DNA of 64,000 nt from an uncultured Thermoleophilia bacterium (GCA_963777895.1 CAVZSF010000003.1:205832-269831); one strand, 5' to 3'; counted from the stretch's first letter, positions 15,577-40,901 are shown. Notes: generated by a model not told the origin, from the letters alone. Translations and numbers: made by a program.

Positions 15577-16821
15577 TCAGGCCACGTGCACCGTGTCTGT
15601 CCTCGTGATCGGCATGTTGCGCTCCACGCATTCGACACAGAACGCGTCCTGCACGCTGCGTGACAGGACCTCGGGGCAGACGATGCCCGCGTCTGTGATC
15701 TTGCCTTCGACGATGAACTCGGCATAGATGCTGGCCGGCGTGCTCGTCCCGTAGCTCACACAGGTCGCGCCCGGGATCTGACCGTTCACCCACTTGATGT
15801 CGGGCGGGAAGATGTTGAGGGTGACGCTGGCCGGCTTGCCGTTCTTCTCTCCGATGCAGTCGACGGTGACGACGCCGAAGTCGGTGATCTCGCCGGCCAG
15901 CGCGAGCTTCGCGAGCTCGTCGGCGGGCGGGTTCGGCGCCAGCGTCGCGACGAAGACGTCGATCGGCCGCACCTGGCTGCCGTCCTTGAGCGTCACGGGG
16001 TATTTGCTGGTCATGCCCGAGCCCACGAGGGCGAGGTCGGCGTCGATGGCGGCGCCGTCCGGGTCGCCGCCCATCTTGAAGTCGACGTAGCGGAGTCCCT
16101 TCTCGCCGTACTTGCCGGGGAGCAGACGCGGCAGTGTGGTGACCTCTTCGTGGTCGTGACAGATGACGGTCCCCAGCCCGAACGGCTCGGGGAACATGTA
16201 CTTCTCGCGGCGCCCGAAGATCTCCACGCGTTTGTGCTCGCCGTCCTCGTAGAGCAGCGGCGGCTGGGCGCAGTCGGTGTAGTACGTCTCCTGACTCCAG
16301 ACCTGCAACGGCACGGGGCTTTCGAACAGGGCGTAGTCCTTGATGCGGATCTCGAAGCACGCGTCGAGGTCCTGGTAGCCGATGCTGGCGAACGTGTTGG
16401 TGACGCCCGGGTCCATGCCGGTGTTGAGCAGAGCGGTGATGCCGGCCTTGGCGAAATCGTCGGCCAGCGTCATCTGCTCGAGGTAGGCCTCGTCGATGGT
16501 CTTCGTGCGCGTCTGACCCGAGGCCATGTCGAGGTACGCGGCGCTGGCCTTGAGGCAGGCGCGCATGATCGCCATGTTGAACTCCGGGATCACGGCGTTG
16601 ACGATCAGCTTGGCGCCGTCACCGGCCTTTGCCACGGCGTCCACGTCCGACGCGTCGATGAACGCGCCCGTCGCCTTGCCGTTGCCGACCTGACCGGCGA
16701 CGAACTTGGCGCGCCTCTCGTCGTAATCGGTGACGAGGATCTCGCTGACGGCCGGATTGCGGCCCAGGTTCCAGGTGAGTACCTGGCCCTGCATGCCGGC
16801 GCCGACGATGAGGACCTTCAT
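15577..16821 (-). CDS. Saccharopine dehydrogenase-like oxidoreductase (carboxy(nor)spermidine dehydrogenase-related family)
   Basis: IVGAGMQG Rossmann motif, YLDMAS, GMDPGVTN, HEEV; AGGAGGG SD. Confidence 0.8.
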   Translation of the reverse strand: MKVLIVGAGMQGQVLTWNLGRNPAVSEILVTDYDERRAKFVAGQVGNGKATGAFIDASDVDAVAKAGDGAKLIVNAVIPEFNMAIMRACLKASAAYLDMASGQTRTKTIDEAYLEQMTLADDFAKAGITALLNTGMDPGVTNTFASIGYQDLDACFEIRIKDYALFESPVPLQVWSQETYYTDCAQPPLLYEDGEHKRVEIFGRREKYMFPEPFGLGTVICHDHEEVTTLPRLLPGKYGEKGLRYVDFKMGGDPDGAAIDADLALVGSGMTSKYPVTLKDGSQVRPIDVFVATLAPNPPADELAKLALAGEITDFGVVTVDCIGEKNGKPASVTLNIFPPDIKWVNGQIPGATCVSYGTSTPASIYAEFIVEGKITDAGIVCPEVLSRSVQDAFCVECVERNMPITRTDTVHVA

Positions 16822-17073
16822 GGTGACTCCCTCCTTGAGGGCGGCGTGCCGCCGCGCCTGCCATGGCTCTCCGCTCCCTATGGAGCGGACCGTTCGCAGC
16901 TTGGTTGTATCAGAGAGCCGCAGACGGTCTCAAGGTGTCTGGAGTGCGGATTTCGCAGATGCAAAGGCGTGAAGCAGTCCTCTTCGTGTCAACTGCTCGC
17001 GATTCGTGACGGGTATCGTGGAACAGGTGTGCCGCAGGTGCCCGACGAGCCTCGCGGGGGTAAGCTTCGGGCC

Positions 17074-17433
17074 ATGCACGAGCTGGGCATCACGCAGGGC
17101 ATCGTCGACCGGGCGCGCGAGGCCGCCGTAGCCAACGGCGCGACCAAGGTCACCGACCTCTATCTCACGATGACCGCGGCGGCGGACTTCACCATCGACT
17201 CGATCGAGATGTACTTCGAGATGCTCACCGACGAGGACGACCTGCTGTGCGGAGCTCGGCTGCACGTCGATTGGGCTCCCGTCGCGGCAACGTGTCTCGA
17301 GTGCCACGAGGGGTTCTCCACCGAGGCGCCGCGGCCGACGTGTCCCGCCTGCGGATCGCAGGTGGTGAGGCTCGACCCTGAGGCGCCGATGGTGCAGCTC
17401 ACCAACGTGGGCATCGAGGGCGGCGAGGACTAG
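17074..17433 (+). CDS. hypA: Nickel metallochaperone HypA/HybF
   Basis: N-terminal MHE Ni motif and two CxxC Zn motifs (CLEC, CPAC); 119 aa. Confidence 0.88.
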   Translation: MHELGITQGIVDRAREAAVANGATKVTDLYLTMTAAADFTIDSIEMYFEMLTDEDDLLCGARLHVDWAPVAATCLECHEGFSTEAPRPTCPACGSQVVRLDPEAPMVQLTNVGIEGGED

Positions 17434-20834: not shown

Positions 20835-23800
20835 TCACGGCTTCGCCTGACCCCGTCCGGCCAGCACCGACGCGAACAGGTCCAGCAGCTCGCGCTCGAA
20901 CAGGAAGGCGGGGCACTCGCCCAACTCCTGCAGGGCCTCGGCTTCCGAGAGCTGCCCGCGGTAGCCTCGGCCGGTGACCAGTCCCTCGTAGGTCGCCGCC
21001 AGCGCGGCGATCTCGGCCGCGCGGCCGCCCTTCTGCCCCGACCCGTCGCACGCCGCCGCCGCGGCGGCGGCGACCGCGCGGAGCTCGCGGCCGCCCATCC
21101 CGCGGGCACGGCCCACGGCGAGGGCGAGGTGCGACACGGCCGCGCGGCGCCGCTTCAGGTACGCGGCACGGGCCGCCGCCACCTCGCCCAGCGAGGCCAC
21201 GACGTCGTCCGTCACGACGGCGGCTTGTTCGGGTGTCACGCTCCCGTGCTCGGCGCTGAACGCGATGACCTGGTTGCGTCCCCGCCGCTTGGCGACGTAC
21301 ATCGCCCAGTCCGCCTTGTCGATCAGCTCTTCCTTGTGCGTGGCGTCGGCCGGACAGACGGCGAGCCCGATGCTCACGGAGAGCGAGTCGGGTCCGGCCG
21401 TGAAGCGGGTGCCAAGGATGCTGTTCCGGATGCGTTCCGCCACTTCGAGCGCGGCCTCCTCGTGCGCGTCCACGAGCACGGCGGCGAACTCCTCGCCTCC
21501 ATACCGGGCTGCTACGTCGACGTGACGCAATGACCCCTCCACGATGCGGGCGACCGCGCGCAGCGCCCTGTCACCGGCGCTGTGCCCGTGCCGCTCGTTG
21601 AAGGCGTGGAAGTCGTCGAGGTCGAGGAAGAGCAGGGCGAGGTGCGTGCCGCGGTCGAGGCAGCGGTCGAGCTCCTCGTCAAGGCGTTCGTGGAAGTAGC
21701 GGTGGTTGTAGAGGCCGGTGAGACCGTCCGTGATCGCCTCGACTTCCGTGCGGCCGATGCGTGCCGCCGCCCCCTCCACCATGGTCGCGAACGTCTGCGT
21801 GACGTCGCTCCGCAGACCCTCGACCTCGGTCTCGCCCGTTGCGGCGGGCAGGTCCGCGGAGACCGCCGCGACGATGTCGCCGTCATGGTTTCGCAGCGGG
21901 GCGGTGCCGCTGATCCAGGCTCCGAACTGATCGACGTAGAGGACCGTCTGGTCGGGACTCCATCCCGCCAGTACCTGGTTGATCTCCTCATCGACGAAGG
22001 TGTCGTCACCGAGACGGGAGTGCAGGCGCTCGTCCTCTTCGGCATCGGTGATCAGCACGGTCTTCTTGCCCTGACGAACGAAGGTGCTGAGAAAGCGCGT
22101 GGGCGGGTGCTCGTCGCGCACGGCACGGAGCACCTCGACCACGCGCCGGTACTCGGGCGAGCTCTCGTCTTGGGGCCGTTGCAGCCGCTGGTGGACCTCC
22201 GGGTCCACGCGGGAGGCCGCATCGACGGCGACGGCGAGGGCCTGTTCCCTCGTGGCCGCCATCCGTTCAAGGACCCGGCGGAAGGCGCCTACGAATGCCG
22301 GGTCGAACTGCGTTCCGCTGCAGCGTTCGAGCTCTTCCAGGCACTCCGGATACGTCAGCGCCTGGCGGTAGGGCCGCCGGAAGCTCATCGCGTCGTAGGA
22401 ATCAACGACGCACATGGCGCGGGCGATCTCGGGGATGCTTTCGCCGCCAAATCCGTCAGGATACCCCGAGCCGTCGTACCGCTCGTGGTGGTGCCGCACC
22501 CCGAGCACGAGGTCCTCCGGGAACAGAGGCCGGATGATCTCGGAGGAGTAGGCCGGATGCTGCCGCATCAGCTCCCACTCCTTGGGGTTCAGGGTGGACG
22601 GCTTGAGCAGCACCCGGTCGCTCACCCCGATCTTGCCGATGTCGTGCAGGTAAGCGGCCTCCTCGACCTGGGCGAGGAGCTCCGGCTTCCAGCCCAGTTC
22701 CTCGCCCAGCAGCACCATGTAGGCCGCCACGCGTGCCGCGTGCCCGAGCGTGTAGTAGTCCTTGGCGTTCAGCGCGCTCGACAGCGCCTTGAGGTTGCCG
22801 AGGTGCATCCGCTTGATGTCGTCGTAGAGCTCGGCGTTGTTCAGGGCGAGGGCGAGTTGCGTCGCCACGCGCTCGAGCAGGCGCCGGTCGACGGCGGTGA
22901 AGGCGTCCGGCATCTCGGAGCCCAAGCTGAGAATGCCGCTCAGGCCTTCGCCCGCCGACAGCGCGATGACGGCCGCCGAGGCGAGCCCGTCGAGACCCTG
23001 GCTGCGGAGCTCCTCAGCGTCCTCGGGCAGCCGGAAGAAGAGGACGCGGTCCTCGGCGAGGCGGTCGGCGAAAGCGGTCAAACGCCCGGGCTCGAAGGGG
23101 TGAGCTTCGTCGCGGTCGGGATGGGTCGCGTAGATGAGCTCGAACGCATCGCCGCGGCGCAGCGTGAGCATGGCGCGCTGGAGCGGCACGAGCGCGCCGA
23201 GCTTCTCGACGGCCGCTGAGGCCACTGCGGGCAGGTCCAGGCTGGCCGTCGTCGCCTGGGCGATCTCGTAGAGCAGCTCGTTCTCGCGGTTGCGAAGCTG
23301 GAGGTCCTCGACGAGGTCGGCGTTGTCGATGGCGAGCGCGGCTACGCGGCACACCGAGGCGATGGTGGCCACCTCGTCGTCGCTGAAGCTGCGAGGGCCG
23401 CGCGTCTCGAGCAGCTCAAGCACACCGATGACCTCGTCCTTCGAGATGAGGGGGAAGATGATCTCCGCCGTTTCGGCGTAGTCCTGCATGAGGGCGCGCT
23501 CGCCCGGGTTGAGCAAGGGGTCGTCGAGGTTCTCGAGCGTCACGGGCTGGCGCGTGTCGACCGCCTTCGTGAGGGCGGCCCAACTGTCGAGGGGGAATCT
23601 GTGCCCTTGCCAGCCCATGTCCACCTCGCCGTCCACGAGGCTCACCACGCACGTGAGATCCCGCTGGTCGTCCAAGGTGTAGATGTCGCAGCACGGCATG
23701 TCGGCCACTGCGCAGAGACGGTGGCCCGTGTTCAGGAGGACCTGGTCGAGGTCGAGTGTCGAGGAGAGCTCGTAGCTGACCTCGTTGACAAGCGCCATGC

Positions 23801-26800
23801 GCTCAGCCGACTTGTCCAACCGGCTGTACAGATCGGCGTTTGCGAGCGCATTGGCCGCGACCTGGGCCAGGCTCTGCAAGAGGTCGAGGTCGCCGAACGC
23901 GCGCGGCCGGTTGTCGAAGATCGAGGCGACGCCCACGACCGTGCCGCGCGTGATGAGAGGCAGCTCGACCTTGGAGCGGTGTCCGTACGACAGATCTATC
24001 GCCCGCTCCGCGTCGGACACGTCCGGATCCGCGGCGATGTCCGCCGTGGTGAAGGGCCTTGACTCGGCGATGGCCTGCTGGATCATGGCGAACTTGTCGA
24101 GAGGGAAGGTCGTGCCCGCGTAGGCCTCGTCGAGCTCCCCGTTCTCGACGCTGGTGACGCAGCGGAGCTGGTCGCCCTCGATGCTCGAGATGTCGCAGCC
24201 GGCGGCGTCCGCCGCCTCGACGAGCCGGCGCGCGACGCTCTCCAGCAGCTGTGCCGGGTCGAGCGTCCCCCCGAACTCCAGCCCGGCCTCCACGAGGTGC
24301 GTGAGCTGCCGGTTCGTGCGCTCGAGGCGTTCCAGGAGCTGGTCCGCCTCGAGCGCCCCGGCCACGATGTGGCCGACGCTCATCAGGAAGTCGCGGAACG
24401 GTCCCAGATCCCTGGGCGTGCGGTCGTAGATCTCCAGCATACCGACGACGCCCGCCTCGCCCGAGAGCGGCACGGCCAGGTCGCTGCGCCAAGGCGAGTC
24501 ACGATAGTGCCTCGCTTCTGCGTCCGAGAGCCCAGGCGTGTCCGGTCCGTTGATCTCCAGGATCTCGGCTCGATCCAGCGCTCGCTTCGTCGAGGGGAAG
24601 GACGCCAGCGAGGTGGTGTGCCCGACGGCATCGCTCAGGGCTACCCCTTCCTCCCAGGACGACAGGCACGTGAGGACGTCGTCGGTCAGGCGGAAGGTCT
24701 GGCACCCCGTGGCCCCGGTCGCCGCGGTCACGGTCCGGCCCACGGCTTGCAGCAGCGTCTCCAGCCGTCCGCCCGCCATCGCCAGACGCCCGAGCTCGAT
24801 GAGCGCCTCCTGCAGCCTCTCGCGCACGTCGACGTCGTCGTGAAGTAAGGCGTTCTTCAGTGTTGCCGCAAGGATCTGGCCGACGCTCTTGAGGAAGTCC
24901 ACCTGCTCGGCGTAGTCCCTGGGACGCTCGTCGAAGACCTCGACGAGCCCGATGACCTCGTCGTCCGCCACGAGAGGGATGCACAGCTCGCTCTTGTAGC
25001 CCCACTCCGCGTAGATCTCGCGCTCCCGGTCGGTGAGCCTGGGGTCGTCCGGGCTCTTGACGATCGCGGGCTCCATCATGTGGATGGCCGTCTGCATCAT
25101 GGGGAAACGGTCCACCGGCGTCGACGCGTCGGTCGCCTCCTGGTCGATGCCGCGCTCGTCCACGCTCACCACGCAGCGCAGCACGTCGCCGTCCAGGCGA
25201 AACACGTCGCAGTCGGCTGCGCCGATGGCCTTCCTCAACCTCTCGGCGACGGCTGCGACCGTCTCGCGCACATCGCGCGACTGGGAAGTGATCGCCCCCA
25301 GCTCGACGAGCTCGTGAAGGATCGCGGTGCGGCGCTCGAGGTCCCCGAGGAGCCTGGTGCTGCCGAAGGCGCCCGCCAGGCTGTTCGCCAGGCTCTGAAG
25401 GAAGGGAAGATACTCCGTGTACTGTCGTTCGCGGGTGTCGTACAGGTCGATCAGGCCGAACAGCTCATCCCCGACGACGATCGGCAGGCAGACCTCGCTC
25501 GCGAAGCCGTAGTCGCGGTAGACGTCGCGCTCCCGGTCCGTCAGCTGCGGGTCGTCGGGGCTTCCGATGACCATCACCTGGCCCGACGTGAAGGCGGCCG
25601 TCAGCGTCGGGTACTCCTGAACGTCCAGGAGACGCCCCACAGCGCGCTCGTCGAGGCCGCTGCGGTCGAAGCTGACGAGGCACCGCAGCCCTTCGGGACT
25701 GTCCTGGTAGATGTCGCAGTTGGCTGCGCCCACCACCTGAACGAGGCGCTCCGCGACGCGCCGGACGACGGTGTCGAAGTCCTGACAACGCCAGGCGAAG
25801 GTGCTCAGCTCGACGAGCTCGTTGAGCAGCCTGTTGCGCCGGTCGATCTGCTCGAAGAGGCGGCCGCTCTCCAGGTTCCTGGCGGCTACCTGGCCGAGGC
25901 CGCTTATCAGGTCGAGATGTTCGGCGAAGGTCCGAGGGACGAAGTCCGACAGCTCGATGATGCCGATCACGCGACCCGCCGCCATGAGCGGGACGGCGAG
26001 CTGGGACTGGTAGCCCCATCGCTCGAGCGACGAGCGGGCTGCGGGTCCGAGCAGCGGGTCGTCGAGGGTCGGCATCACGGCGATCTGGCCGGTCTGGACG
26101 GCCTTCAGCTCGCACGGATAGCGCGCCAGCGGGACCGACGTTCCCTCCCAGTCTCCGTCGAAGCGCCCGCCGTCGTAGCTCACGAGGCAGCGCATCGTGC
26201 CGGCTTCGACGAGGTAGACGTCGGCTACGGGCGTCGACGTGAGCTCGGAGAGGCGTTTCGCGATCGAGCGGAGGATGCCGTCGGTCGTTCCGAGCTGCGA
26301 CGCGTCGTCGACGCCGGCCTCGACGATGGCCTCGAGATCCTGCACGCGGCGCTCCAGGTCCGAGGTGAGGGGCCTTCCGGAGGAGGCGAGGGACGGCGAC
26401 GCGGACGCCGGCACCAGGTCGACGGGCGCTCTCGGCGCCTGTTCCTGGACGCCGCCGCTTTCGGCGGCGATGAGCATGCCGGCCTGTCCGGCGACGAACT
26501 CCGCGAACGCGATGTTGGCCGCCGTGAAGGCGCGGGGGTAGCGACCCTCGGCGAGCTCGACCACGCCGGCCGCCGCTGCGCCGACCATGATCGGCAGCAT
26601 GAGCAGGGCCCGGTCGCCCCTCCTCCGGCAGATCGTGGCCGCCCCATCGTCGAGAATGCCGGTCGAAGCCGTGTCGCTCACGATCAGCCGGCGCTGGGTC
26701 CTGATGACCTCGGCGGCCAGCGGGACGTCGGCGGGGGAAAGCGCGGCGCCGACGGCCATACCGCGCGGAGCGCTGTCGACGGCGTGACCTGCGACAACGT

Positions 26801-27155
26801 GGAACCCGTGTTCGCGATCGGCGATCAACATGACGCACGAGGTCACCCCGAGTCCGTCCGCGGCGACCTGGGCGAGGGTGGCGAGACCGGTGTGCGCCCG
26901 CAGGGAGGCGCCCAGAACGTCGAGGGGCGTCGGCGACGCCGGGCCGGCGTCGCTCGCTTCGCCGGCGCCTGCCTGGGTGCGAAGGATGGCCTCAATGTCG
27001 CTGCGCCGGAAGCGACGATGCCCGCCCGGGCTGCGGTAGCACGTCAGCTTACCGGCGTCAGACCAGCGTCGCAGCGTGTTGGGGCTCACGCCGAGCGCCG
27101 CGGCCGCGTCGCTCAGTCGCAGCCAGACCTCGCCGTCGGCTCTGCCTGCGCGCAT
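20835..27155 (-). CDS. Giant signalling protein: BldC/excisionase-like HTH + about 8 GAF + HD-GYP + Cache-like + GGDEF + degenerate HD-GYP tail
   Basis: AAAALGVSPNTLRRWSDAGKLTCYRSPGGHRRF; repeated GAF units; YLHDIGKIG, HHERYDGSGYPDG; TDGLTGLYNHR, RHVD..RYGGEEF; GGGGAGGG SD before ATG 27155. Confidence 0.9.
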   Translation of the reverse strand: MRAGRADGEVWLRLSDAAAALGVSPNTLRRWSDAGKLTCYRSPGGHRRFRRSDIEAILRTQAGAGEASDAGPASPTPLDVLGASLRAHTGLATLAQVAADGLGVTSCVMLIADREHGFHVVAGHAVDSAPRGMAVGAALSPADVPLAAEVIRTQRRLIVSDTASTGILDDGAATICRRRGDRALLMLPIMVGAAAAGVVELAEGRYPRAFTAANIAFAEFVAGQAGMLIAAESGGVQEQAPRAPVDLVPASASPSLASSGRPLTSDLERRVQDLEAIVEAGVDDASQLGTTDGILRSIAKRLSELTSTPVADVYLVEAGTMRCLVSYDGGRFDGDWEGTSVPLARYPCELKAVQTGQIAVMPTLDDPLLGPAARSSLERWGYQSQLAVPLMAAGRVIGIIELSDFVPRTFAEHLDLISGLGQVAARNLESGRLFEQIDRRNRLLNELVELSTFAWRCQDFDTVVRRVAERLVQVVGAANCDIYQDSPEGLRCLVSFDRSGLDERAVGRLLDVQEYPTLTAAFTSGQVMVIGSPDDPQLTDRERDVYRDYGFASEVCLPIVVGDELFGLIDLYDTRERQYTEYLPFLQSLANSLAGAFGSTRLLGDLERRTAILHELVELGAITSQSRDVRETVAAVAERLRKAIGAADCDVFRLDGDVLRCVVSVDERGIDQEATDASTPVDRFPMMQTAIHMMEPAIVKSPDDPRLTDREREIYAEWGYKSELCIPLVADDEVIGLVEVFDERPRDYAEQVDFLKSVGQILAATLKNALLHDDVDVRERLQEALIELGRLAMAGGRLETLLQAVGRTVTAATGATGCQTFRLTDDVLTCLSSWEEGVALSDAVGHTTSLASFPSTKRALDRAEILEINGPDTPGLSDAEARHYRDSPWRSDLAVPLSGEAGVVGMLEIYDRTPRDLGPFRDFLMSVGHIVAGALEADQLLERLERTNRQLTHLVEAGLEFGGTLDPAQLLESVARRLVEAADAAGCDISSIEGDQLRCVTSVENGELDEAYAGTTFPLDKFAMIQQAIAESRPFTTADIAADPDVSDAERAIDLSYGHRSKVELPLITRGTVVGVASIFDNRPRAFGDLDLLQSLAQVAANALANADLYSRLDKSAERMALVNEVSYELSSTLDLDQVLLNTGHRLCAVADMPCCDIYTLDDQRDLTCVVSLVDGEVDMGWQGHRFPLDSWAALTKAVDTRQPVTLENLDDPLLNPGERALMQDYAETAEIIFPLISKDEVIGVLELLETRGPRSFSDDEVATIASVCRVAALAIDNADLVEDLQLRNRENELLYEIAQATTASLDLPAVASAAVEKLGALVPLQRAMLTLRRGDAFELIYATHPDRDEAHPFEPGRLTAFADRLAEDRVLFFRLPEDAEELRSQGLDGLASAAVIALSAGEGLSGILSLGSEMPDAFTAVDRRLLERVATQLALALNNAELYDDIKRMHLGNLKALSSALNAKDYYTLGHAARVAAYMVLLGEELGWKPELLAQVEEAAYLHDIGKIGVSDRVLLKPSTLNPKEWELMRQHPAYSSEIIRPLFPEDLVLGVRHHHERYDGSGYPDGFGGESIPEIARAMCVVDSYDAMSFRRPYRQALTYPECLEELERCSGTQFDPAFVGAFRRVLERMAATREQALAVAVDAASRVDPEVHQRLQRPQDESSPEYRRVVEVLRAVRDEHPPTRFLSTFVRQGKKTVLITDAEEDERLHSRLGDDTFVDEEINQVLAGWSPDQTVLYVDQFGAWISGTAPLRNHDGDIVAAVSADLPAATGETEVEGLRSDVTQTFATMVEGAAARIGRTEVEAITDGLTGLYNHRYFHERLDEELDRCLDRGTHLALLFLDLDDFHAFNERHGHSAGDRALRAVARIVEGSLRHVDVAARYGGEEFAAVLVDAHEEAALEVAERIRNSILGTRFTAGPDSLSVSIGLAVCPADATHKEELIDKADWAMYVAKRRGRNQVIAFSAEHGSVTPEQAAVVTDDVVASLGEVAAARAAYLKRRRAAVSHLALAVGRARGMGGRELRAVAAAAAAACDGSGQKGGRAAEIAALAATYEGLVTGRGYRGQLSEAEALQELGECPAFLFERELLDLFASVLAGRGQAKP

Positions 27156-27305
27156 GCCCTCCCCGTCCTGCGCCGCGTAAGCCGGGTCGATCCCGGCGAA
27201 AACGCACAAATCCTACCCGGCGCGCCATGCGGTGTCGACTCAATGGTGAGGATTATTGGGGAGGATGTTCGACGAGGACGGCGGGGTCGCCTGCCTCGAG
27301 GGCTC

Positions 27306-30300
27306 TCAGCCGTCGGGTTCGGCACCCGGGCCGAAGACGACGACGCGGTCCCGCCCGGTGCGCTTCGCGAGGTACATCGCCCAGTCGGCCTTGTCGACGA
27401 GCTCTTCGGCCAGGCCGGCGTCGCGCGGGTAGCTGCTGACCCCGATGCTCACCGTCAGTCCGGCGCCGTCGGTCGCGAGGGTGAGCTGCGCGATGCCGGC
27501 GCGAACACGTTCCGCGACCTCTGCGGCTCCGCTCGCATCGGTGTCGATGAGCAGGACGGCGAACTCCTCACCGCCGTAGCGCGCGGCCAGGTCGATCTGG
27601 CGCAGCGAGCGCAGCAGGACGTTGGCGATGGCACGGAGCGCCTCGTCACCGGCGAGATGGCCGTGGGTGTCGTTGTAGTCCTTGAAGCGGTCGATGTCGC
27701 AGAACAGGAGGGAAAGCGGCTTGCCCTGCTCGTTCGCCCTGGCGAGCTCCTCGGCAGCCCTCTGTTTGAAGTACCGCTGGTTGTAGAGCCCCGTGAGGCC
27801 GTCGGTGACGGCGTCCACCCGCGCCCGCCCCAGGCGCGTCGTGGCGGATTCGATGACGGCAGCGAACGCACCGGACCCGATCTGGCGGCCGAACTCCGTG
27901 GGCCAGTCGTCGTCCGGCGTCAGGTCGGCGCAGGCGAGACCCACCGTTTCGCCGTGCTCGTCGGTCAGGTCGGCGAGAGCGCTCACCCAGATGCCGAAGT
28001 CGTCGAGATGCAGCACGTTTCGCTCGGCATCGAGGGCGGCCGCCTCATCGACGCCGGCCTCGATGCCGAGCACGAGGTCGCCGAGGTGCGAGTGCAGGGC
28101 CTCGTCCTCCTCGGGGTCGCCGACCATACGCCAGCCCTGGTGACCGGGCACCATCGTGGTGAGGAAGCGCACGGGGGGGTGCTCGTCGCGGATCCGCCGC
28201 AGCACCCCCACAAGGTCGCGATACTCGGCGCTCCCTTCGTCCTCGACGCTCGTGAGGCGGTCGTGTTCTCTGATGTCGACGGCAGACGCCGCCGTGTGCG
28301 CTGCCGCCTTCGCCAGCGCCTTCCGCTCCGCGAGGCGAGCCAGCACGCGCAGGAAGGCGTCGACCATGTCCGGGTCGAATTGCCGGCCGCGGCATTGCTG
28401 GAGCTCAGCGACGCACTCCTCGAACACGAGCGCCGGGTGATGCGGGCGCTGGTACGACATGGCGTCGTAGGAGTCCACGAGACAGAGCGCCCGAGCGAGC
28501 TCGGGGATGTCTGTCTCGCGCAATCCGTCGGGGTAGCCGCCGCCATCCCAGCGCTCGTGGTGGTGCCGGATGCCGAGGACGATGTCCTCGCCGTACAGCG
28601 GCCGCACGATCTCCGCGCTCGTGATCGGATGGTCGCGGAGCTCCGCCATCTCGGCGTCCGAGAGCCGCCCTGGCTTGAAGAGCACATCGTCGGCTACGCC
28701 GATGCGGCCGACGTCGTGCAGGAAGGCGGCCTCCGTGATCTCCGGAAGGCGCTCGCTGTGCCAGCCCAGCTCGCGCCCGAGCAGGAGCATGTAGCCCGCG
28801 ACGCGCGCGGCGTGACCCACGGCGTAGGAATCGCGCGCGTTGAGCGCCGTGATGAGCGCCTTGAGATTGCTCACGTGCATGGTCTTGATGGTCTCGTAGA
28901 GCCGGGCGTTCTTGAAGGCGAGCGCGAGCTGCGAACCCACGCGCGCGAGCAGTCTCCGGTCCGTCTCCGAGAACGCGTCCCGCCGGCGTCGCCCGAGGGC
29001 CAGAGCGCCGGTCAGCCCGCGGTCGTCCCACAGGCCGACCACGAGCAGTGTCGCCAGGGCAGGATCGCCCCCGAGGCCCTGTGCGACATCGGGACGTGCC
29101 GTCAGGTCGAGGATGACGGCGTGCTCCTCTTCCAGCGGCCCGACAAGGCCCGACGACAGCAGGTGTCCCATGGTGGCCGCAACGCCGTCGAGGCCGGGCA
29201 GGGAGCTGTAGATGACGCGCCAGTCGCCCTCGTGCTCGATCACGAGGCAGACCTCGTCGAACGAAAGCAGGCCGGCGAGCGCGCCGATGCTGGCGGTGGC
29301 GATGTCGCCGCTGTCGAGGCTCGCCGTCGTTATCGCGGCGATCCTGTTCAGGAGCTCGGCCTCGCGCGTGCGGATCGCGAGGTCTGCGTACAGCTCGGCA
29401 TTCGCGATGGCCAGAGCCGCGACGCGGCAGAGCGCCTCGGCGCTGGCCACCTCCTGCGGATCGAACTGGCGCCTGGAGGGAGGGTCGAAGAGTTCGTCGA
29501 GGCCACGCTGCGCTCCCGGCTCGAAGAGTTCGGCGACGCCGATGGCCCGCTTCTCGACGACCAGGGGCACGATGAGTGCGCTCTTCGGTCCGGCGCGGCC
29601 CGTCACTGCGGCCGCCGCGACGCGCGGATCGTCCGGTCCCACCACCGTCACCACGGAGCGGGACTCGACGGCCAGCCTGGCCGCGCGCCAAACGTCGAGG
29701 CGGTAACGCCTGCCGATCCACGAGTCGTCACGCTCGCCCTTGACGACGCTGGCCATGCAGACGAGCTGGCCCCCTTCAAGGATGTAGATGTCGCAGGCCG
29801 GTACCGACACCGCCTGGGCAAGGCGGCGCGCCGCCGAGCCGAGTACGTGGTCAAGGTCGAGCGACGCGGCCAGGTCGAGGCCGGCCTCGTTGAGCACGCT
29901 CATACGCGCGGCGGACTCGTCCAGCAGGCGGTGCACTCGCGCGTTGCCGATCGTCTGCGCGGCTATCTGGGCGAGACCCAACAGCAGGTCGCCATGGGGG
30001 ATCCCACCCTGCTTCTTCGAGTACATCGCGGCGACACCGATGACCTCGTTGCCCTGGATCAGGGGCAGCTCCAGGATCGAGCGATAGCCCCAGTGCAGGT
30101 TCTCTTCGCGCTCGATGCGGGTGACGGACGGATCCTCGGCGACGTCGGCCACGGTGTACGGCTGCCGCTGGCTCACGACGCGGGACGCCGCCGTGTAGTC
30201 GCTGAGGTTGTAGCGCGTCCCGGGGAAGTGCGCATCGATCACGTCACGATCGGCGCTCACCAGCCCCAGCATGGTGTCGTCCTCGAGTGCGTAGAGGTCG

Positions 30301-32012
30301 CAGGCATCCGCCTCGGCGGCGTCGCACATCCTTAGGACTACCGTACGAAGGACCTCATCGAGGTCGAGGGACGCATTGAACTCGCGTGCCGAATCGACAA
30401 GCAGGCGAAGGTCCCGGTTCGTGGTGGCGAGCCGCTCGAGCAGAAGCGCGTTGTCGAACGCCCCGCCGACGATCTGACCGACGCTGCGCGCGAAGTCGAG
30501 GTACTCGGCGTAGTCCCGACCCTGCTCGTCGAAGAGGTCGATGAGACCGACCAGCCGCTCGCCGACCACCAGGGGGATCGCCAGCTCGCTGCGGAAGCCC
30601 CACGTGGTGAACGACACCTGCTCGGTATCGCTCAGACGAGGATCATCCGGTCGCTGGACGACCAGCACGTCGTGCTCGCGAGCGGCCTGTGTCAGGCTGG
30701 GAAACTGCTCGAGGTCGATCGGCTTCGTCGCGTCCGGGTCGTCGAAGCCCGGTCGCACGTCGATGCTCACGAGGACGCGCAGCTCGCCGCCCTCGACCTT
30801 CGCGATCTCGCAGCAGGTGGCGCCGACGACGTCGATCAGGCGCTCGGCCACGTAGCGAGCGAGCGCCACGGGATCGTTCGTCTGGGTCACGCGCGCGCCG
30901 AGCTCCACGATCTCGCGAAGGGTGAGATTGCGCGACTCCAGCGCCTCCACGAGCAGCACGCGATCGAGGGTGTGAGCGGCCACGTCGCACAGCGCGCCAG
31001 CCGCCGTCAGGACGTCCGCATAGTCGCGCGGCCGATCGTCGTGGACCTCGGCGACGCCGATGACCTGCCCCTGGCTCCGCAGCGGGACGACGAGGGACGA
31101 CACGATGCCCCACTCGGTCATCGCCGCTCTTGCGGCATCGCTCATGCGCGGGTCGCTGCGGTCGCGGGTGACCTCCGGCAGTCCCGTCAAGACGGCGCTT
31201 CGCACCGCCGGCCAATCGGCCAGAGGGAACACCGATCCCTCGTAGGCGGCCTGGAATCTCCCACGCTCCCATGAGACGACGACACGTACGGCCTCGGGCT
31301 CGACGACCGAGAGGTCGACCATCGGGGCGTCGCACAGCTCGGCCAGGCGGCGGGCGATGACCCGCAGGACCTGGTCAGAACCCGCCGTCCTGCTCTGGGC
31401 CTCGATGTCGGCGTCGAGGATGAGAGCGAGGTCGGCCGCCCTGCGCTCGGCGTGCGCCAGGCGCCGCCTGGCGTCCACGAGATCGGCGATGAGGCGCACC
31501 AGCGCCTCGTGCCCGGCCACGGATGCGGCGAGATCGCGGTTGCGGTCGTCGGCGAGCTCGACGATCCCGACCACGGCGTCGTCGACCACGAGAGGTACGA
31601 TCGCCACGCTCGTCCCGTCTCCGTTCCCGTACAGACGGGAGCGCTGGCTTCGCGAGAGCCGGGGGTCGCGTGCGTCCGCGATGACCACCGTCCGCCGCGT
31701 GTCCATCGCCTGGTGGGCGGGCGGGAGATCGTCGACGGCCCAGTGAATGCCGGGGCGCCGGTGGGGCGGACGTCTCCGGCCGTGGGCGGCGAGCACCTCG
31801 CCATCGCCGTCCGCGACGGCGCTGATGAGGCAGCAGGCGACATGAGTCGCACCGCAGAGCTCTGCGGCGGCGAGCGCGAGCGTCTCGTCCGTGTCGGTGA
31901 CCGCCGAGGCGGTCAGGCCCGGCGGAGTCCCGCCGGTGGCGCTGTCGTCCATACTTCCGTCATCGGCATCGGGCGCGTCAGGCTCAACCTGGAGGCTGTC
32001 GCGCGCGCCCAT
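27306..32012 (-). CDS. Multi-GAF (about 6) + HD-GYP + Cache-like + GGDEF protein, paralogue of the neighbour
   Basis: FLHDVGRIG, HHERWDGGGYPDG, TDGLTGLYNQR, RQID..RYGGEEF; repeated GAF units. Confidence 0.9.
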   Translation of the reverse strand: MGARDSLQVEPDAPDADDGSMDDSATGGTPPGLTASAVTDTDETLALAAAELCGATHVACCLISAVADGDGEVLAAHGRRRPPHRRPGIHWAVDDLPPAHQAMDTRRTVVIADARDPRLSRSQRSRLYGNGDGTSVAIVPLVVDDAVVGIVELADDRNRDLAASVAGHEALVRLIADLVDARRRLAHAERRAADLALILDADIEAQSRTAGSDQVLRVIARRLAELCDAPMVDLSVVEPEAVRVVVSWERGRFQAAYEGSVFPLADWPAVRSAVLTGLPEVTRDRSDPRMSDAARAAMTEWGIVSSLVVPLRSQGQVIGVAEVHDDRPRDYADVLTAAGALCDVAAHTLDRVLLVEALESRNLTLREIVELGARVTQTNDPVALARYVAERLIDVVGATCCEIAKVEGGELRVLVSIDVRPGFDDPDATKPIDLEQFPSLTQAAREHDVLVVQRPDDPRLSDTEQVSFTTWGFRSELAIPLVVGERLVGLIDLFDEQGRDYAEYLDFARSVGQIVGGAFDNALLLERLATTNRDLRLLVDSAREFNASLDLDEVLRTVVLRMCDAAEADACDLYALEDDTMLGLVSADRDVIDAHFPGTRYNLSDYTAASRVVSQRQPYTVADVAEDPSVTRIEREENLHWGYRSILELPLIQGNEVIGVAAMYSKKQGGIPHGDLLLGLAQIAAQTIGNARVHRLLDESAARMSVLNEAGLDLAASLDLDHVLGSAARRLAQAVSVPACDIYILEGGQLVCMASVVKGERDDSWIGRRYRLDVWRAARLAVESRSVVTVVGPDDPRVAAAAVTGRAGPKSALIVPLVVEKRAIGVAELFEPGAQRGLDELFDPPSRRQFDPQEVASAEALCRVAALAIANAELYADLAIRTREAELLNRIAAITTASLDSGDIATASIGALAGLLSFDEVCLVIEHEGDWRVIYSSLPGLDGVAATMGHLLSSGLVGPLEEEHAVILDLTARPDVAQGLGGDPALATLLVVGLWDDRGLTGALALGRRRRDAFSETDRRLLARVGSQLALAFKNARLYETIKTMHVSNLKALITALNARDSYAVGHAARVAGYMLLLGRELGWHSERLPEITEAAFLHDVGRIGVADDVLFKPGRLSDAEMAELRDHPITSAEIVRPLYGEDIVLGIRHHHERWDGGGYPDGLRETDIPELARALCLVDSYDAMSYQRPHHPALVFEECVAELQQCRGRQFDPDMVDAFLRVLARLAERKALAKAAAHTAASAVDIREHDRLTSVEDEGSAEYRDLVGVLRRIRDEHPPVRFLTTMVPGHQGWRMVGDPEEDEALHSHLGDLVLGIEAGVDEAAALDAERNVLHLDDFGIWVSALADLTDEHGETVGLACADLTPDDDWPTEFGRQIGSGAFAAVIESATTRLGRARVDAVTDGLTGLYNQRYFKQRAAEELARANEQGKPLSLLFCDIDRFKDYNDTHGHLAGDEALRAIANVLLRSLRQIDLAARYGGEEFAVLLIDTDASGAAEVAERVRAGIAQLTLATDGAGLTVSIGVSSYPRDAGLAEELVDKADWAMYLAKRTGRDRVVVFGPGAEPDG

Positions 32013-32024
32013 CCGCGGTAAGTT

Positions 32025-33098
32025 TCAGCCCACGCTGCTCGTCGCGTCGGCGGCGATGATGCGAGCCATCTCGTCGAACGCCGCGCCCACCGGCGAGGAC
32101 GGGTCGAGAGCTGCCGGGACCCCCCGGTCTCCGCCGTCTCGGGTCGCCTCGTCGAGGGGGATCCGACCGAGCAGCCGTGTGTCCATGAGGCGGGCGATCT
32201 CGAAGGCGCCGCCCCGCCCGAAGATGTAGTGACGCGTGTCGCACGTCGGGCAGACGAAGTAGGCCATGTTCTCGACCACTCCGAGGACGCGGTGCTTCGT
32301 CATCTGCGCCATCCGTGCCGCCTTGCTCGCGGTGCGCGCCGCGGCCTCCTGGGGCGTGGTGACGATGATCATCTCGGCGTCGGGGATCATCTGGGCGACG
32401 GTTAGCGCGATGTCGCCCGTCCCCGGGGGGAGGTCGATGAGGAGGAAATCGGGGCTGCCCCACAGGACGTCGCCGAGGAACTGCTCGATCGCGCGTCCGA
32501 GCATCGGCCCCCGCCAGATGACCGGCTGGTCGCCCTCGAGAAAGAGACCCATCGACACCATCTTGACCCCGTACCGCTCGGGCGGCACGACCCTGCCCTC
32601 GTGCACCTCGGGTCGCACGTCGGGCAGGCCCAGCATCAGCGGGACGGACGGTCCGTACACGTCGGCGTCGATGAGGGCGACGGCGTGTCCGTGACGCGCG
32701 AGCGAGACGGCGAGGTTGACCGTCACGGTCGACTTGCCCACGCCGCCCTTGCCGCTGGCGATCGCGATGGTGCGGGTGGCAGAGCCGGGGCCGAAGAGCG
32801 TCTGGATCGACTGGTCTCGCGCCGTAAGATCGCGCCCCAGGGCGTCGCGTTCCTCGCACGACATCGCGTCGAGCTTGACCTCGACGTGCCGATGCCCGGC
32901 AATGGCGATCAGGGCCTTCTCGGCCTCGGCGCGGATCTGGTTGCGCAGGGGGCACGCCGCCGTGGTCAGGACGATGGTGGCGCCGATCCGTTGCTCGTCC
33001 ACGACGATATCGCGCACCATGCCGAGCTCGACGATGCTGCGCCTCAGCTCCGGGTCCTGCACGGTGGAGAGCGCCGCGCGCACGTCGTCAGGGGTCAC
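32025..33098 (-). CDS. mrp: Mrp/ApbC/NBP35 Fe-S cluster carrier ATPase
   Basis: VQDPELRRSIVELGMV, SGKGGVGKST, DADVYGPS, WRGPML, DLPPGTGD, ENMAYFVCPTC; GGAGG SD before GTG 33098. Confidence 0.93.
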   Translation of the reverse strand: MTPDDVRAALSTVQDPELRRSIVELGMVRDIVVDEQRIGATIVLTTAACPLRNQIRAEAEKALIAIAGHRHVEVKLDAMSCEERDALGRDLTARDQSIQTLFGPGSATRTIAIASGKGGVGKSTVTVNLAVSLARHGHAVALIDADVYGPSVPLMLGLPDVRPEVHEGRVVPPERYGVKMVSMGLFLEGDQPVIWRGPMLGRAIEQFLGDVLWGSPDFLLIDLPPGTGDIALTVAQMIPDAEMIIVTTPQEAAARTASKAARMAQMTKHRVLGVVENMAYFVCPTCDTRHYIFGRGGAFEIARLMDTRLLGRIPLDEATRDGGDRGVPAALDPSSPVGAAFDEMARIIAADATSSVG

Positions 33099-33324
33099 TG
33101 GTCCTCCCGCGGGTGGCTTCGATCGGGCGCGGCCGGCGCAGGGCCGCCCGCGCCTCGATTGTAGCAGGGCGTTCACAGCCTCAGCAGAAGCGCTTCACAG
33201 CATCTTCACCACTCCCGTCTACCATGACCTGAGAGACCGGCGTCTCGCGCTGCGAGCGGGACGATGTCTGCCACCCGACGAGGGAGGGGACGACCGGGAG
33301 GCCTTGGGAACGAGACAGGAGAGT

Positions 33325-36523: not shown

Positions 36524-36634
36524 TTGTTCTTCCTCCTCGTGGCTCTCGTGCACGCCTGCAGGCCCCCGCCGCGCGACTCACGCTCTGCACAACGCCACTC
36601 GATTGGTTGCTCGTTCTTGCTCCTTGGGTCTCGT

Positions 36635-38982: not shown

Positions 38983-38998
38983 TTGACCACCTTCCTCC

Positions 38999-40851: not shown

Positions 40852-40901
40852 GCTCCATCGGGAGATTCCACGGCTCCCAAGGCGCAGCGCCTTGGAGGTC
40901 C

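Follow-up and report, generated by a model that had tools for sequence, protein, structure and literature searches.

In E. coli, the soluble protein PdeL (YahA) joins an active c-di-GMP enzyme to an N-terminal helix-turn-helix (HTH) domain in one chain, and it is reported to bind its own promoter under modulation by c-di-GMP (PMC5052742). Hybrids that carry HD-GYP and GGDEF domains with intact motifs in a single chain are rare, accounting for 74 of 1,034 HD-GYP proteins in the survey reported by Seshasayee et al. (2010, PMC2952852), and mostly follow the order (PAS)n-GGDEF-HD-GYP without a DNA-binding domain; one archaeal GGDEF-HD-GYP protein (Methanocella, 2026) is reported to have been studied in vivo (PMC13725321). 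PmGH of Persephonella marina (4MCW) and V-cGAP3 of V. cholerae possess a GAF domain directly before the HD-GYP domain, and V-cGAP3 has two HD-GYP modules, of which one is active and the other degenerate. The Streptomyces protein BldC (6AMA/6AMK), a 68-aa MerR-like winged HTH (wHTH), is a stand-alone monomer that forms head-to-tail multimers on AATTxxxx(C) repeats, and the B12 photoreceptors CarH/CtMerR (8JBS) are described as one-component regulators with the same HTH subtype N-terminal to the sensor (PMC11796333).

The protein analyzed here, encoded in a 64-kb window of DNA from an uncultured soil actinobacterium of the class Thermoleophilia, shares features with all of these systems but differs from each. 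Compared to PdeL, which has a LuxR-type HTH and an EAL hydrolase in about 360 aa, it has an HTH_17/BldC-like domain and a predicted HD-GYP enzyme in 2,106 aa, in addition to a cyclase domain, a sensor array and a Cache-like domain that PdeL lacks. Like the known hybrids it keeps both sets of catalytic motifs intact, whereas its order is HD-GYP-Cache-GGDEF-(remnant HD-GYP), preceded by the HTH and GAF domains; with both enzymes intact, synthesis and breakdown of c-di-GMP by a single chain could offset one another. It resembles PmGH and V-cGAP3 in the GAF directly before HD-GYP, and V-cGAP3 also in the pairing with a degenerate module, yet both lack the HTH, GGDEF, Cache-like domain and GAF array. 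Unlike BldC, its HTH is fused to some 2,000 aa, and unlike CarH/CtMerR, which have a cobalamin-binding sensor and no enzyme output, it carries predicted enzymes. Our analysis established the domain anatomy, the integrity of the motifs, the conservation of the family, two newly assigned folds and a conserved promoter box. No major concept is changed, and the protein is best described as an uncommon form of a signalling protein whose general kind is already known.

Reading frame, domain order and family

One open frame, listed among the ORFs of the window, spans 20835..27209 on the minus strand and encodes 2,124 aa from a TTG codon. We favored the in-frame ATG at 27155, which yields 2,106 aa (20835..27155, minus strand, stop codon at 20835-20837), because M1 aligns with residue 1 in 57 of 114 homologues, residues 2-10 (MRxGRAxGE) are conserved among homologues, the 18 codons from TTG to ATG are not conserved in relatives, and a sigma-70-type promoter-like site (TCGACA-17-TAGGAT, 27210..27238, minus strand; from a consensus scan only) ends directly at the TTG. 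In public annotation, the gene of this cluster (P0003, 1,836 aa) is called from an internal GTG within the linker of residues 219-291, leaving out the HTH and GAF1. As no stop codon separates these from the remaining chain, P0003 represents a start-site call, and the HTH is not a separate gene, a possibility that the first-pass annotation had left room for when it proposed a single protein of about 2,100 aa. An annotation artefact, in which translation begins at the GTG and the HTH and GAF1 do not form part of the same chain, would agree with P0003 and with the 6 of 120 listed homologues that have no HTH, but it appears extremely improbable, given the uninterrupted frame, the conservation of HTH and GAF1 as protein, in frame with the rest, in 114 of the 120, and a conserved promoter box that lies upstream of the ATG and not of the GTG.

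From N- to C-terminus, the protein consists of the HTH_17 domain, eight GAF domains, the HD-GYP domain, a 186-aa domain, the GGDEF domain and a 142-aa tail, all encoded on the minus strand. Every motif named in the first-pass annotation was found where it had been placed, with HMM E-values far beyond chance, and the "about eight" GAF repeats are indeed eight by profile search. GAF1 (26502..26888, residues 90-218) is of a divergent type that shares 14-20% identity with the other GAFs, and is followed by a Pro/Ala/Ser-rich linker of 73 aa (26283..26501, residues 219-291). GAF2-GAF7 (23352..26282, residues 292-1268) are six units with an exact period of 169 aa, each a 129-aa GAF plus a 40-aa linker, at residues 292-420, 461-589, 630-758, 799-927, 968-1096 and 1137-1268; Cys pairs are present in GAF3-7. 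The divergent GAF8, of GAF_3 type (22836..23231, residues 1309-1440), is directly N-terminal to the HD-GYP domain. Together with the Cache-like domain, the chain thus has nine sensor modules. A scan of the whole protein with 19-residue Kyte-Doolittle windows revealed no segment that would convincingly span a membrane; the maximum, 2.06 at residues 184-202, falls within the core strands of GAF1, in line with the earlier impression of no obvious transmembrane region.

The protein is not unique but belongs to a large, lineage-restricted family of Thermoleophilia. Among 120 listed homologues, the HTH is present in 114, and the HTH, HD-GYP, Cache-like and GGDEF domains occur together in 112, so that the fusion proposed at first pass is both real and conserved. 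For one family of Thermoleophilia, 79 genomes were sampled and 72 of them had the core; among 400 further genomes drawn from across the phylum, none had it. In this family the GAF rod varies from one to at least ten units at exact 169-aa periods, most of which bear a C-x11-C pair, and each genome has two or three paralogues with the same HTH. Moreover, an HTH-less tandem paralogue (27306..32012, minus strand; 1,568 aa) with six GAFs, HD-GYP, Cache-like and GGDEF domains and no tail lies directly upstream, as in 12 of 34 related loci; a gene for an Mrp/ApbC-type ATPase (32025-33176) precedes it with a 12-nt gap. A literature search found no study of this family or architecture, in keeping with the first-pass annotation, which knew of no characterized example. 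Among RNA runs, none contained the locus.

The HTH head and the conserved promoter box

The N-terminal head (26973..27125, minus strand; residues 11-61) is an excisionase-type wHTH that scores above the cut-offs of HTH_17 (PF12728, 48.4-52.2 bits against 27) and of the excisionase family TIGR01764 (33 bits against 28.8). Its closest solved relative is BldC (6AMA), with an E-value of 4e-10 and 24 of 57 aligned residues identical without gaps, and the same subtype heads CtMerR (8JBS, E 2e-8); the wHTH relatives found also include the architectural binders RacA (5I41, E 0.02) and excisionase-like Gp37. The BldC residues T27, R30, W31, G44, H46, R47 and R48, as numbered in PMC5859096, map gap-free to identical residues of the head, and the mutations R30A and H46E are each reported there to abolish DNA binding by BldC. 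In all 114 family HTHs, T27, R29, R30, R41, S42, G44, G45, H46, R47 and R48 (BldC numbering) are invariant, and W31 is kept in 100 of them; at the level of sequence, this conservation points to a nucleic-acid-binding surface under strong selection. Two DNA-contact positions of BldC are changed in the head (K26 to N and K33 to D). At the head-to-tail interface, V23, W31 and G44 are kept, whereas R22 to G, which removes the salt bridge of BldC, L43 to P, I40 to Y and L11 to W are substitutions.

The label "BldC-like" given at first pass therefore stands as to the nearest solved relative and the invariant key contacts, but does not extend to the BldC family of NCBIfam (NF033787), for which the head scores 51.1 bits (E 8.6e-14) against a curated cut-off of 77, nor to the full oligomerization interface. 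A stand-alone BldC-type small protein of about 68 aa was also rejected, as the HTH occupies residues 11-61 of 2,106. Classical MerR regulators have a wHTH followed by a coiled-coil dimerization helix and a C-terminal effector pocket. The head does not follow this layout, as the MerR_1 match covers only profile positions 2-48 of 69 and a Gly/Ala/Pro-rich linker follows the HTH.

A box of about 20 nt lies at the -10/+1 region before the HTH-bearing genes in 37 of 37 loci examined; its distance to the W11 codon downstream is fixed, at 72-95 nt. Here it occupies 27194..27215 on the minus strand (TAGGATTTGTGCGTTTTCGCCG; family consensus GAGAATTGGTGAACTTCTGAGC), and its first six nucleotides form a -10-like hexamer. 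When a matrix built from 21 loci was applied to 16 held-out loci, the promoter site was the top-ranked position of its locus in 8 of them and among the best five in 15. In a scan of the organism's genome, the promoters of the two HTH-bearing paralogues ranked 2 and 15 among 6.4 million positions, whereas the other top sites precede unrelated genes, giving no regulon. The box of the window itself is the weakest of the long forms, with 13 bits, and -0.5 under the held-out matrix. Judged from sequence conservation, the box is a candidate operator, but it may instead be a core promoter that has been conserved, because its first six nucleotides are a -10 hexamer and the genome scan yielded no regulon.

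The missing regulon would also fit a nucleoid-anchored enzyme, in which the HTH tethers the protein to DNA in an architectural or multi-site manner, as in BldC, Xis and RacA, rather than to particular genes, and c-di-GMP is made or removed beside DNA-bound effectors. The kinship with RacA and Gp37 points the same way, as does the report that BldC reads DNA largely through its shape, with few base contacts (PMC5859096). Nevertheless, a conserved box whose position is constant within the promoters of the family itself, together with a recognition helix that does not vary, fits a specific site better, and two or three paralogues with the same HTH would compete for one anchor; we consider such anchoring rather unlikely.

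Catalytic domains and the Cache-like sensor

The HD-GYP domain (22296..22787, minus strand; residues 1457-1620; HD_5/HD-GYP E 2e-31, HD_5 109.6 bits against a cut-off of 27.2) contains the motifs HDIGK and HHERYDGSGYP, which the first-pass annotation had rightly read as intact. It keeps seven of the eight metal ligands of PmGH in addition to the GYP motif, with Tyr in place of E185, according to a PmGH ligand numbering that we take to be correct and that agrees with the alignment offset. These ligands and GYP are conserved in the family, and HD[IVL]GK occurs in 119 of 120 listed homologues. The change of E185 to Tyr makes a trinuclear metal site unlikely, and the activity or substrate may differ. 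The best solved match is V-cGAP3 (5Z7C, E 4e-38), which shares the Tyr at this position and carries its active HD-GYP module in tandem with a degenerate one, raising the idea that 3'3'-cGAMP is hydrolyzed instead of, or besides, c-di-GMP. This seems very unlikely, however, as PmGH, a c-di-GMP enzyme, matches almost as well (E 5e-36), and the partner GGDEF domain aligns with canonical c-di-GMP cyclases and has the Asn...Asp pair that is presumably guanine-specific in PleD.

The helical tail (20838..21263, minus strand; residues 1965-2106) resembles the C-terminal part of an HD-GYP domain (Pfam HD_5 E 0.056; BLAST against the protein's own HD-GYP E 5e-4). As first suspected, it derives from a second HD-GYP domain that has lost its HD/HHE/GYP centre by deletion, which leaves the remnant catalytically dead.

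The 186-aa domain between the two enzymes (21738..22295, minus strand; residues 1621-1806) has no Pfam match over residues 1625-1810, even at E 10. It models as a Cache/PDC-type sensor fold (AF2, pLDDT 84.3, pTM 0.80), with a long N-terminal helix, a PAS-like five-stranded sheet and long flanking helices, the second of which forms a stalk into the GGDEF domain. The model resembles CitA (2J80; Z 13.7, RMSD 2.5, 127 of 129 residues aligned), DctB (3BY9; Z 13.2) and WalK (4YWZ; Z 12.8), and Foldseek matched it to 8BIY (TMt 0.77). Profile searches relate the domain to sensor domains that membrane cyclases and kinases carry outside the cytoplasm: weak sCache_3_3 or sCache_3_2 matches occur in 4 of 15 such proteins scanned, HAMP in 7 of the 15, and a hydrophobic 19-mer on each side of the domain in 8 of 9 checked. 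For the present protein an extracytoplasmic location was rejected, as it has no membrane segment.

The GGDEF domain (21270..21737, minus strand; residues 1807-1962; E 2e-42) scores 145 bits against a cut-off of 23.8, and 160 against 37.4 for TIGR00254; it matches 38 solved cyclases at E of 1e-20 or below, including PleD and WspR. Its A-site and I-site, RHVD-x5-GGEEF (RHVDVAARYGGEEF), with RxxD five residues upstream, are as first annotated. GGDEF catalysis needs a dimer, and the stalk helices of the model suggest that the protein would form one.

The catalytic motifs of both domains are thus intact, in support of the bifunctional make-and-break enzyme proposed at first pass, whose activities are predicted. 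Many GGDEF-EAL hybrids use one domain as a sensor, and here too a single catalytic domain might work in vivo with the other sensing nucleotides, for example with the GGDEF I-site reporting c-di-GMP or GTP to HD-GYP. The Tyr at E185 would be in keeping with this, and the GGEEL found in the upstream paralogue in 8 of 12 related loci implies that motif drift is tolerated in the family. Hybrids are reported often to have one regulatory domain, but the same survey judges that nearly all HD-GYP/GGDEF hybrids likely keep both activities (PMC2952852). As both motif sets are strongly conserved, with HD[IVL]GK nearly universal and RxxD-x5-[GS]GEEF in 109 of 120 listed homologues, we regard a one-way enzyme as unlikely.

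Proposed mechanism and its meaning

We propose, with somewhat better than even confidence, that the protein is a PdeL-like "trigger enzyme", with predicted DNA binding and both making and breaking of c-di-GMP. The analogy to the trigger phosphodiesterases PdeL/PdeR draws on domain logic and the conserved promoter box. The first-pass annotation had suggested a DNA-tethered bifunctional enzyme or a transcription factor with built-in turnover; the latter idea gains a precedent in the HTH-EAL protein PdeL as reported in PMC5052742, and by the same token the concept is not unprecedented.

The protein would be a soluble one-component system with two sensor-to-enzyme modules in series, for which we infer DNA binding, both enzyme activities, their coupling, dimerization and autoregulation. 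In the first module the GAF array would feed the HD-GYP phosphodiesterase, and in the second the cytoplasmic Cache-like domain would act through the helical stalk on the GGDEF cyclase with its product-inhibition (I-) site, the two being capped by the BldC/excisionase-type wHTH at the N-terminus and the dead HD-GYP remnant at the C-terminus. A parallel dimer would run along the GAF-linker rod, as GGDEF catalysis needs. Signals sensed by the GAF and Cache-like domains would shift the balance of making and breaking c-di-GMP, and the same conformational or nucleotide state would decide on DNA binding by the paired HTHs, for which the conserved box in the gene's own promoter is the most likely site. 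Turnover of c-di-GMP would thereby be coupled directly to transcription and to the protein's own level.

A bolder version, which we hold to be quite unlikely, has mixed dimers of the HTH protein and its conserved HTH-less tandem paralogue on a conserved operator overlapping the HTH gene's own -10/+1 region. The GAF rod would then serve as a graded "ruler" for redox state or metal and would switch the dimer between cyclase-on/DNA-off and phosphodiesterase-on/DNA-on states. If true, c-di-GMP turnover would be coupled to DNA in a switch that tunes itself; such a switch would have no characterized counterpart and would draw on HD-GYP chemistry and on a Cache domain that has been taken over for use in the cytoplasm.

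Thermoleophilia are common actinobacteria of soil and sediment; to our knowledge they lack genetic systems, and next to nothing has been learned of how they signal. We know of trigger enzymes so far only among EAL proteins of E. coli. If the trigger-enzyme reading is true, this family would provide the first example of an HD-GYP/GGDEF hybrid with a direct link to DNA, and would extend the idea to another enzyme class and phylum. The modeled Cache-like domain between the two enzymes suggests that sensors of a type that normally lies outside the membrane may be usable in the cytoplasm. Moreover, the family offers a natural series in which the same head and catalytic core are combined with one to at least ten exactly periodic GAF units, a good subject for work on signal transmission through long sensor rods with helical linkers.

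Reading frame and modular organization

The gene occupies a single open frame on the minus strand, running from 27209 to 20835 in the ORF listing, within a window of ~70% G+C. The interval 20835-27155 proposed in the first-pass annotation begins at an in-frame ATG and yields a protein of 2,106 residues. We took this ATG at 27155 as the predicted start, because M1 aligns with the initial residue of 57 of 114 homologous N-termini, relatives do not conserve the 18 codons from an upstream TTG to the ATG, and a promoter-like TCGACA-17-TAGGAT, a consensus match only, ends at 27210, at the TTG itself. In addition, the segment MRxGRAxGE directly after M1 is conserved across the family N-termini, and GGGGAGGG immediately 5' of the ATG was given no weight because of its short spacing. 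All residue numbers count from this ATG.

The deposited call for the gene, cluster representative P0003, uses an internal GTG start, and its 1,836 residues hide the helix-turn-helix (HTH) and the first GAF domain; automated architecture counts will therefore undercount the HTH fusion in the family. The lost N-terminus may be due to an antisense frame at 25080-30335 (+) of 1,751 residues, a spurious ORF typical of high-G+C coding DNA that spans both the gene and its tandem paralogue. Among public sequencing runs, no RNA run was listed as containing the locus, and the four best DNA runs gave short, low-depth contigs that leave 26748-26971 uncovered and include almost nothing up to 27400. We regard a mis-joined start of the gene as extremely improbable; the protein is real and intact.

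A word-indexed protein search scored 8,000 candidates, 269 of them at E<=1e-10, and the counts below refer to the 120 homologues listed, which are 1,423-2,440 residues long. Among these 120, phmmer detected the HTH in 114, HD-GYP in 119, the Cache-like domain in 118, GGDEF in 117 and the tail in 77; the first four occur together in 112 and all five in 73. The six HTH-less members, P0003 among them, start inside the GAF region.

Pfam and NCBIfam models, together with an HMM built from the protein's own repeats, divide the protein into an N-terminal HTH_17 (residues 11-61; 48-52 bits against a cut-off of 27), GAF1 (residues 90-218), a Pro/Ala/Ser-rich linker of 73 residues (219-291), GAF2 to GAF7 (292-1268), GAF8 of the GAF_3 type (1309-1440), HD_5/HD-GYP (1457-1620; E 2e-31), a Cache-like domain (1621-1806) without any Pfam match even at E 10, GGDEF (1807-1962; E 2e-42) and a tail (1965-2106). 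GAF1 to GAF7 were delineated by both Pfam and the own-repeat HMM, GAF8 by Pfam, and the tail by Pfam and BLAST. The first-pass estimate of about eight GAF domains thus agrees with the models, as does its lack of transmembrane helices: no convincing membrane segment was found, and the most hydrophobic 19-mer (KD 2.06) falls within core strands of GAF1.

GAF2 to GAF7 constitute a regular rod with a period of exactly 169 residues, in which a 129-residue GAF is followed by a linker of exactly 40 residues, six times over. Pairwise identity among these six is 23-41%, compared to 14-20% for GAF1 and GAF8, which are of other types. A search for DNA-level tandem repeats across both paralogues found none, the 507-nt period exceeding the 500-nt detection maximum. 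Each of GAF3 to GAF7 (residues 480-1169; window 23352-25715, minus strand) carries a cysteine pair, C-x11-C but x12 in GAF7, within the motifs xCD(I/V)(Y/F) and L(R/T)C(L/V)xS, which could make up five copies of a redox or metal site. A PDB sequence search with one GAF unit (residues 600-770) returned no match at E<=0.01 and therefore no ligand lead, and the NKxDE cyclic-nucleotide motif was not found in the protein.

The DNA-binding head and its promoter box

The closest solved relatives of the HTH are BldC (6AMA, E 4e-10; 6AMK, E 3e-9), followed by the HTH domain in CtMerR, a B12 photoreceptor (8JBS, E 2e-8), with weaker matches to CarH, RacA, phage Gp37 and TipA (E 0.008-0.08). The initial description of this head as BldC/excisionase/MerR-like holds in part. 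BldC is its best relative and the excisionase domain model is passed (33 against 28.8); however, the score of 51.1 bits against the NCBIfam BldC threshold of 77 places it outside the BldC family, and the MerR coiled coil is missing, since only positions 2-48 of the 69 in MerR_1 are matched.

Alignment of the HTH against BldC is gapless, with 24 of 57 residues identical and the residue numbering coinciding by chance. The BldC study (PMC5859096) describes a major-groove G contact by R30 and a minor-groove contact by H46, with binding abolished by R30A and H46E, as well as wing contacts by R47 and R48 and further DNA contacts by K26, W31, T27, T29 and K33. It also describes a head-to-tail interface of F21/V23/W31 against L11'/I40'/T42'/L43'/G44' with an R22-E16' salt bridge (PMC5859096). 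The present HTH shares R30, W31, H46, R47, R48, T27, V23 and G44 with BldC, but differs by the substitutions K26 to N, T29 to R, K33 to D, R22 to G, E16 to D, F21 to L, L11 to W, I40 to Y and L43 to P. Across the family, T27, R29, R30, R41, S42, G44, G45, H46, R47 and R48 are invariant in 114/114 HTHs, and W31 is kept in 100 of them. This conservation provides strong indirect evidence that the family HTH is a functional DNA-binding surface.

The organism's genome holds only four HTH_17 loci, none of which is a small stand-alone BldC-sized gene. One of them, on contig 5 (L077:738-1901, minus strand), encodes a 387-residue protein whose only Pfam domain is the same HTH_17 head (51 bits).

A box with the consensus GAGAATTGGTGAACTTCTGAGC is present in 37/37 HTH-bearing loci examined, 72-95 nt before the W11 codon. 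Its first hexamer resembles the actinobacterial -10 (TAGRRT), and the remainder extends over the discriminator to include the likely +1. We trained a matrix on 21 loci from a single clade and applied it to 16 other loci; scored against all positions of its locus, the held-out promoter site ranked first in eight, fifth or better in 15 and tenth in one. The window's own copy, which is among the weakest, ranks 5 of 51,958 under this matrix. Scanning the entire genome of the organism (6.4 million positions) placed the promoter of a family copy on contig 6 at rank 2 and that of the present gene at rank 15, with only 20 sites at >=12 bits. The box is a candidate operator, through which the invariant HTH might act in autoregulation; given its overlap with the -10-like hexamer and the likely +1, it may alternatively be merely a conserved core promoter. 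The other top sites of the genome scan precede unrelated genes, such as ORFs resembling an ABC permease and MurB, or have no clear reading frame after them, and no regulon can be claimed from the scan. That the HTH acts as a nucleoid anchor, and not as a specific regulator, appears unlikely to us, with the box recurring in every HTH-bearing locus examined.

We also looked through the promoter for BldC-type head-to-tail repeats (AATTxxxxC). By visual inspection, a neighboring pair of 9-mers 5' of the -35 gave a loose fit, but the pair was dropped because relatives do not conserve it. Rfam returned no match for 27080-27330 at E<=1, and thus no known riboswitch or leader. Two further conserved elements occur in related loci L001-L070, some 100-150 nt 5' of the HTH genes (window ~27255-27300). 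One is a GCAGGC-N6-8-GCCTGC hairpin just past the upstream gene, which is probably the terminator of that gene, and the other is TCCTCCCCA(A/T)T, ~55-65 nt before the -10.

Catalytic domains, the intervening Cache-like domain and the tail

The HD-GYP domain matches V-cGAP3 (5Z7C, E 4e-38), PmGH (4MCW, E 5e-36) and PA4781 (4R8Z, E 2e-24). The metal ligands of PmGH are E185, H189, H221, D222, H250, H276, H277 and D305, a numbering that agrees with the alignment once a shift of 6 is applied. The present protein keeps seven of the eight unchanged; the exception is E185, which is replaced by Tyr, a feature shared with the active module of V-cGAP3. That cGAMP and not c-di-GMP is the HD-GYP substrate seems highly unlikely, despite the top-ranking match to V-cGAP3. 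HD[IVL]GK is kept in 119/120 listed homologues. The GGDEF domain matches 38 solved cyclases at E<=1e-20, PleD and WspR among them, and RxxD-x5-[GS]GEEF is found in 109/120. The Asn...Asp pair in GLYNHRYFHERLD presumably corresponds to the guanine-binding pair of PleD. Both the HD and GYP motifs and the GGEEF with its RxxD were therefore read correctly from the raw sequence; with motifs kept in both enzymes, we consider it quite improbable that one catalytic domain serves as a sensor only.

In the AlphaFold2 model of residues 1621-1806 (pLDDT 84.3, pTM 0.80), short helices and a five-stranded sheet are enclosed between a long helix at the N-terminus and another at the C-terminus that runs into GGDEF. 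Structural search against representatives revealed that it most resembles Cache/PDC sensors, led by CitA (2J80; Z 13.7, RMSD 2.5, 127/129 residues aligned) and followed by 8BGB (Z 13.5), DctB (3BY9, Z 13.2), WalK (4YWZ, Z 12.8) and the sCache formate sensor 8PY0 (Z 11.3). Foldseek concurs, with 8BIY at a TMt of 0.77. A profile built from this segment together with 61 homologous ones taken out of related loci matched 5,815 proteins at E<=1e-3 among 1.84 billion representatives, 1,409 at <=1e-10 and 113 at <=1e-30. Matches outside the family include proteins with 5-7 tandem copies of the domain and ~500-residue proteins with the domain at residues ~45-200. Among 15 such relatives scanned, HAMP occurs in seven and weak sCache_3 matches in four, and each protein ends in a GGDEF, adenylate/guanylate cyclase or histidine kinase as its output; two hydrophobic 19-mers flank the domain in 8 of the 9 relatives inspected for them. 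Clusters in the ESM Atlas were mostly unnamed, and the single, weak hint among them was sCache_3_3 on 19% of one. From the structural matches, the profile relatives and their flanking 19-mers, we infer that residues 1621-1806 are a relative of extracytoplasmic Cache-type sensors, here predicted to be cytoplasmic and placed immediately before the cyclase.

The tail was initially described as a degenerate second HD-GYP, and an alignment of 23 family tails bears this out. The distant members L021 and L023 possess a complete second HD-GYP-like domain that keeps HHHERYDGxGYP, with CDIG or ADIG replacing HDIG. The other 21 tails, including the present one, are without the central ~65 columns holding HD, HHE and GYP, and retain the flanks with a near-invariant YR...SEAEAL.EL. 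Sequence comparison also links the tail to the HD-GYP of the same protein (BLAST E 5e-4) and to the final part of Pfam HD_5 (E 0.056). Its model is a confident five-helix bundle (pLDDT 84.8), for which Foldseek gave nothing at E<=0.001 and weak top matches (E 0.1-0.4) that are all HD-GYP domains. Judged from its sequence, the tail cannot be catalytic.

Distribution, neighborhood and proposed mechanism

JGI names the family automatically as [quoted passage not shown]. We retained 75 loci from species-representative genomes, nearly all of them in uncultured Thermoleophilia, Actinomycetes or Actinomycetota MAGs, with short forms of ~750-850 residues and few GAFs alongside the long forms. Using a 526-residue core of HD-GYP, Cache-like and GGDEF domains as query (E<=1e-80, three candidates scored per genome), we found the core in 78 of 401 genomes sampled within class Thermoleophilia. 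These comprise 72/79 in the organism's own family and 5/61 in one other, and the core was found in none of those sampled from families f2 (0/79), f3 (0/76), f5 (0/28), f6 (0/24) and f7 (0/44), nor in 400 other genomes across the phylum. The organism's genome (3.2 Mb, 95.5% complete) contains three family members, namely the present gene, its tandem paralogue and a 1,793-residue HTH-bearing copy on contig 6, in addition to two EAL loci.

The tandem paralogue (27306-32012, minus strand; 1,568 residues) has six GAFs, HD-GYP, the Cache-like domain and GGDEF (GGEEF), is without HTH and tail, and is 52% identical to the present protein over the core. Between its start and the stop codon of an Mrp/ApbC-type Fe-S ATPase gene (32025-33176, minus strand; ParA/NUBPL and FeS_assembly_P) there are 12 nt, and because of this short gap the two are probably co-transcribed. 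For 34 HTH-bearing genes, 3 kb or more of the preceding sequence was available; 12 of these have a same-strand HTH-less paralogue directly upstream, carrying GGEEL in eight, GGEEF in three and GGEEY in one; in many of the remaining loci the direct upstream neighbor is the Mrp-type gene. Downstream lies a convergent arginase-family gene, and the neighbors give no hint of a target pathway.

Elsewhere in the window, a lysine-fermentation-type cluster (35327-40858, minus strand) includes the alpha subunit (37369-39057) and the B12-binding beta subunit (36635-37372) of D-lysine 5,6-aminomutase and a thiolase (35327-36553). The long ORF at 16150-17433 (+) matches HypA, a hydrogenase/urease nickel metallochaperone, only in its final ~100 residues, and the real HypA-type gene is probably much shorter.

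By analogy with PdeL, we consider it the likeliest reading, with moderate confidence, that this is a soluble one-component protein forming a parallel dimer, in which the enzyme or nucleotide state is coupled to DNA binding. The GAF rod would govern HD-GYP, the Cache-like domain would govern GGDEF with feedback added by the I-site, and the enzyme or nucleotide state would in turn govern DNA binding by the paired HTHs. Such "trigger enzyme" logic has been reported for PdeL (PMC5052742), an HTH-EAL protein of E. coli, so that fusion of an HTH to a c-di-GMP enzyme is already known. HD-GYP/GGDEF hybrids are likewise a known, rare class, given as 74 of 1,034 HD-GYP proteins in one survey (PMC2952852), and an in vivo study of an archaeal GGDEF-HD-GYP protein exists (PMC13725321). 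In the full-text literature covered, which lies outside subscription journals, no paper combines excisionase/HTH_17 with GAF, HD-GYP and GGDEF, and none deals with Thermoleophilia, in line with the first-pass view that the architecture was not known as characterized. To this picture the present analysis adds a predicted Cache-like assignment for the domain between the two enzymes, an account of where the tail derives from and a residue-level mapping onto BldC, together with the pairing of paralogues and the promoter box.
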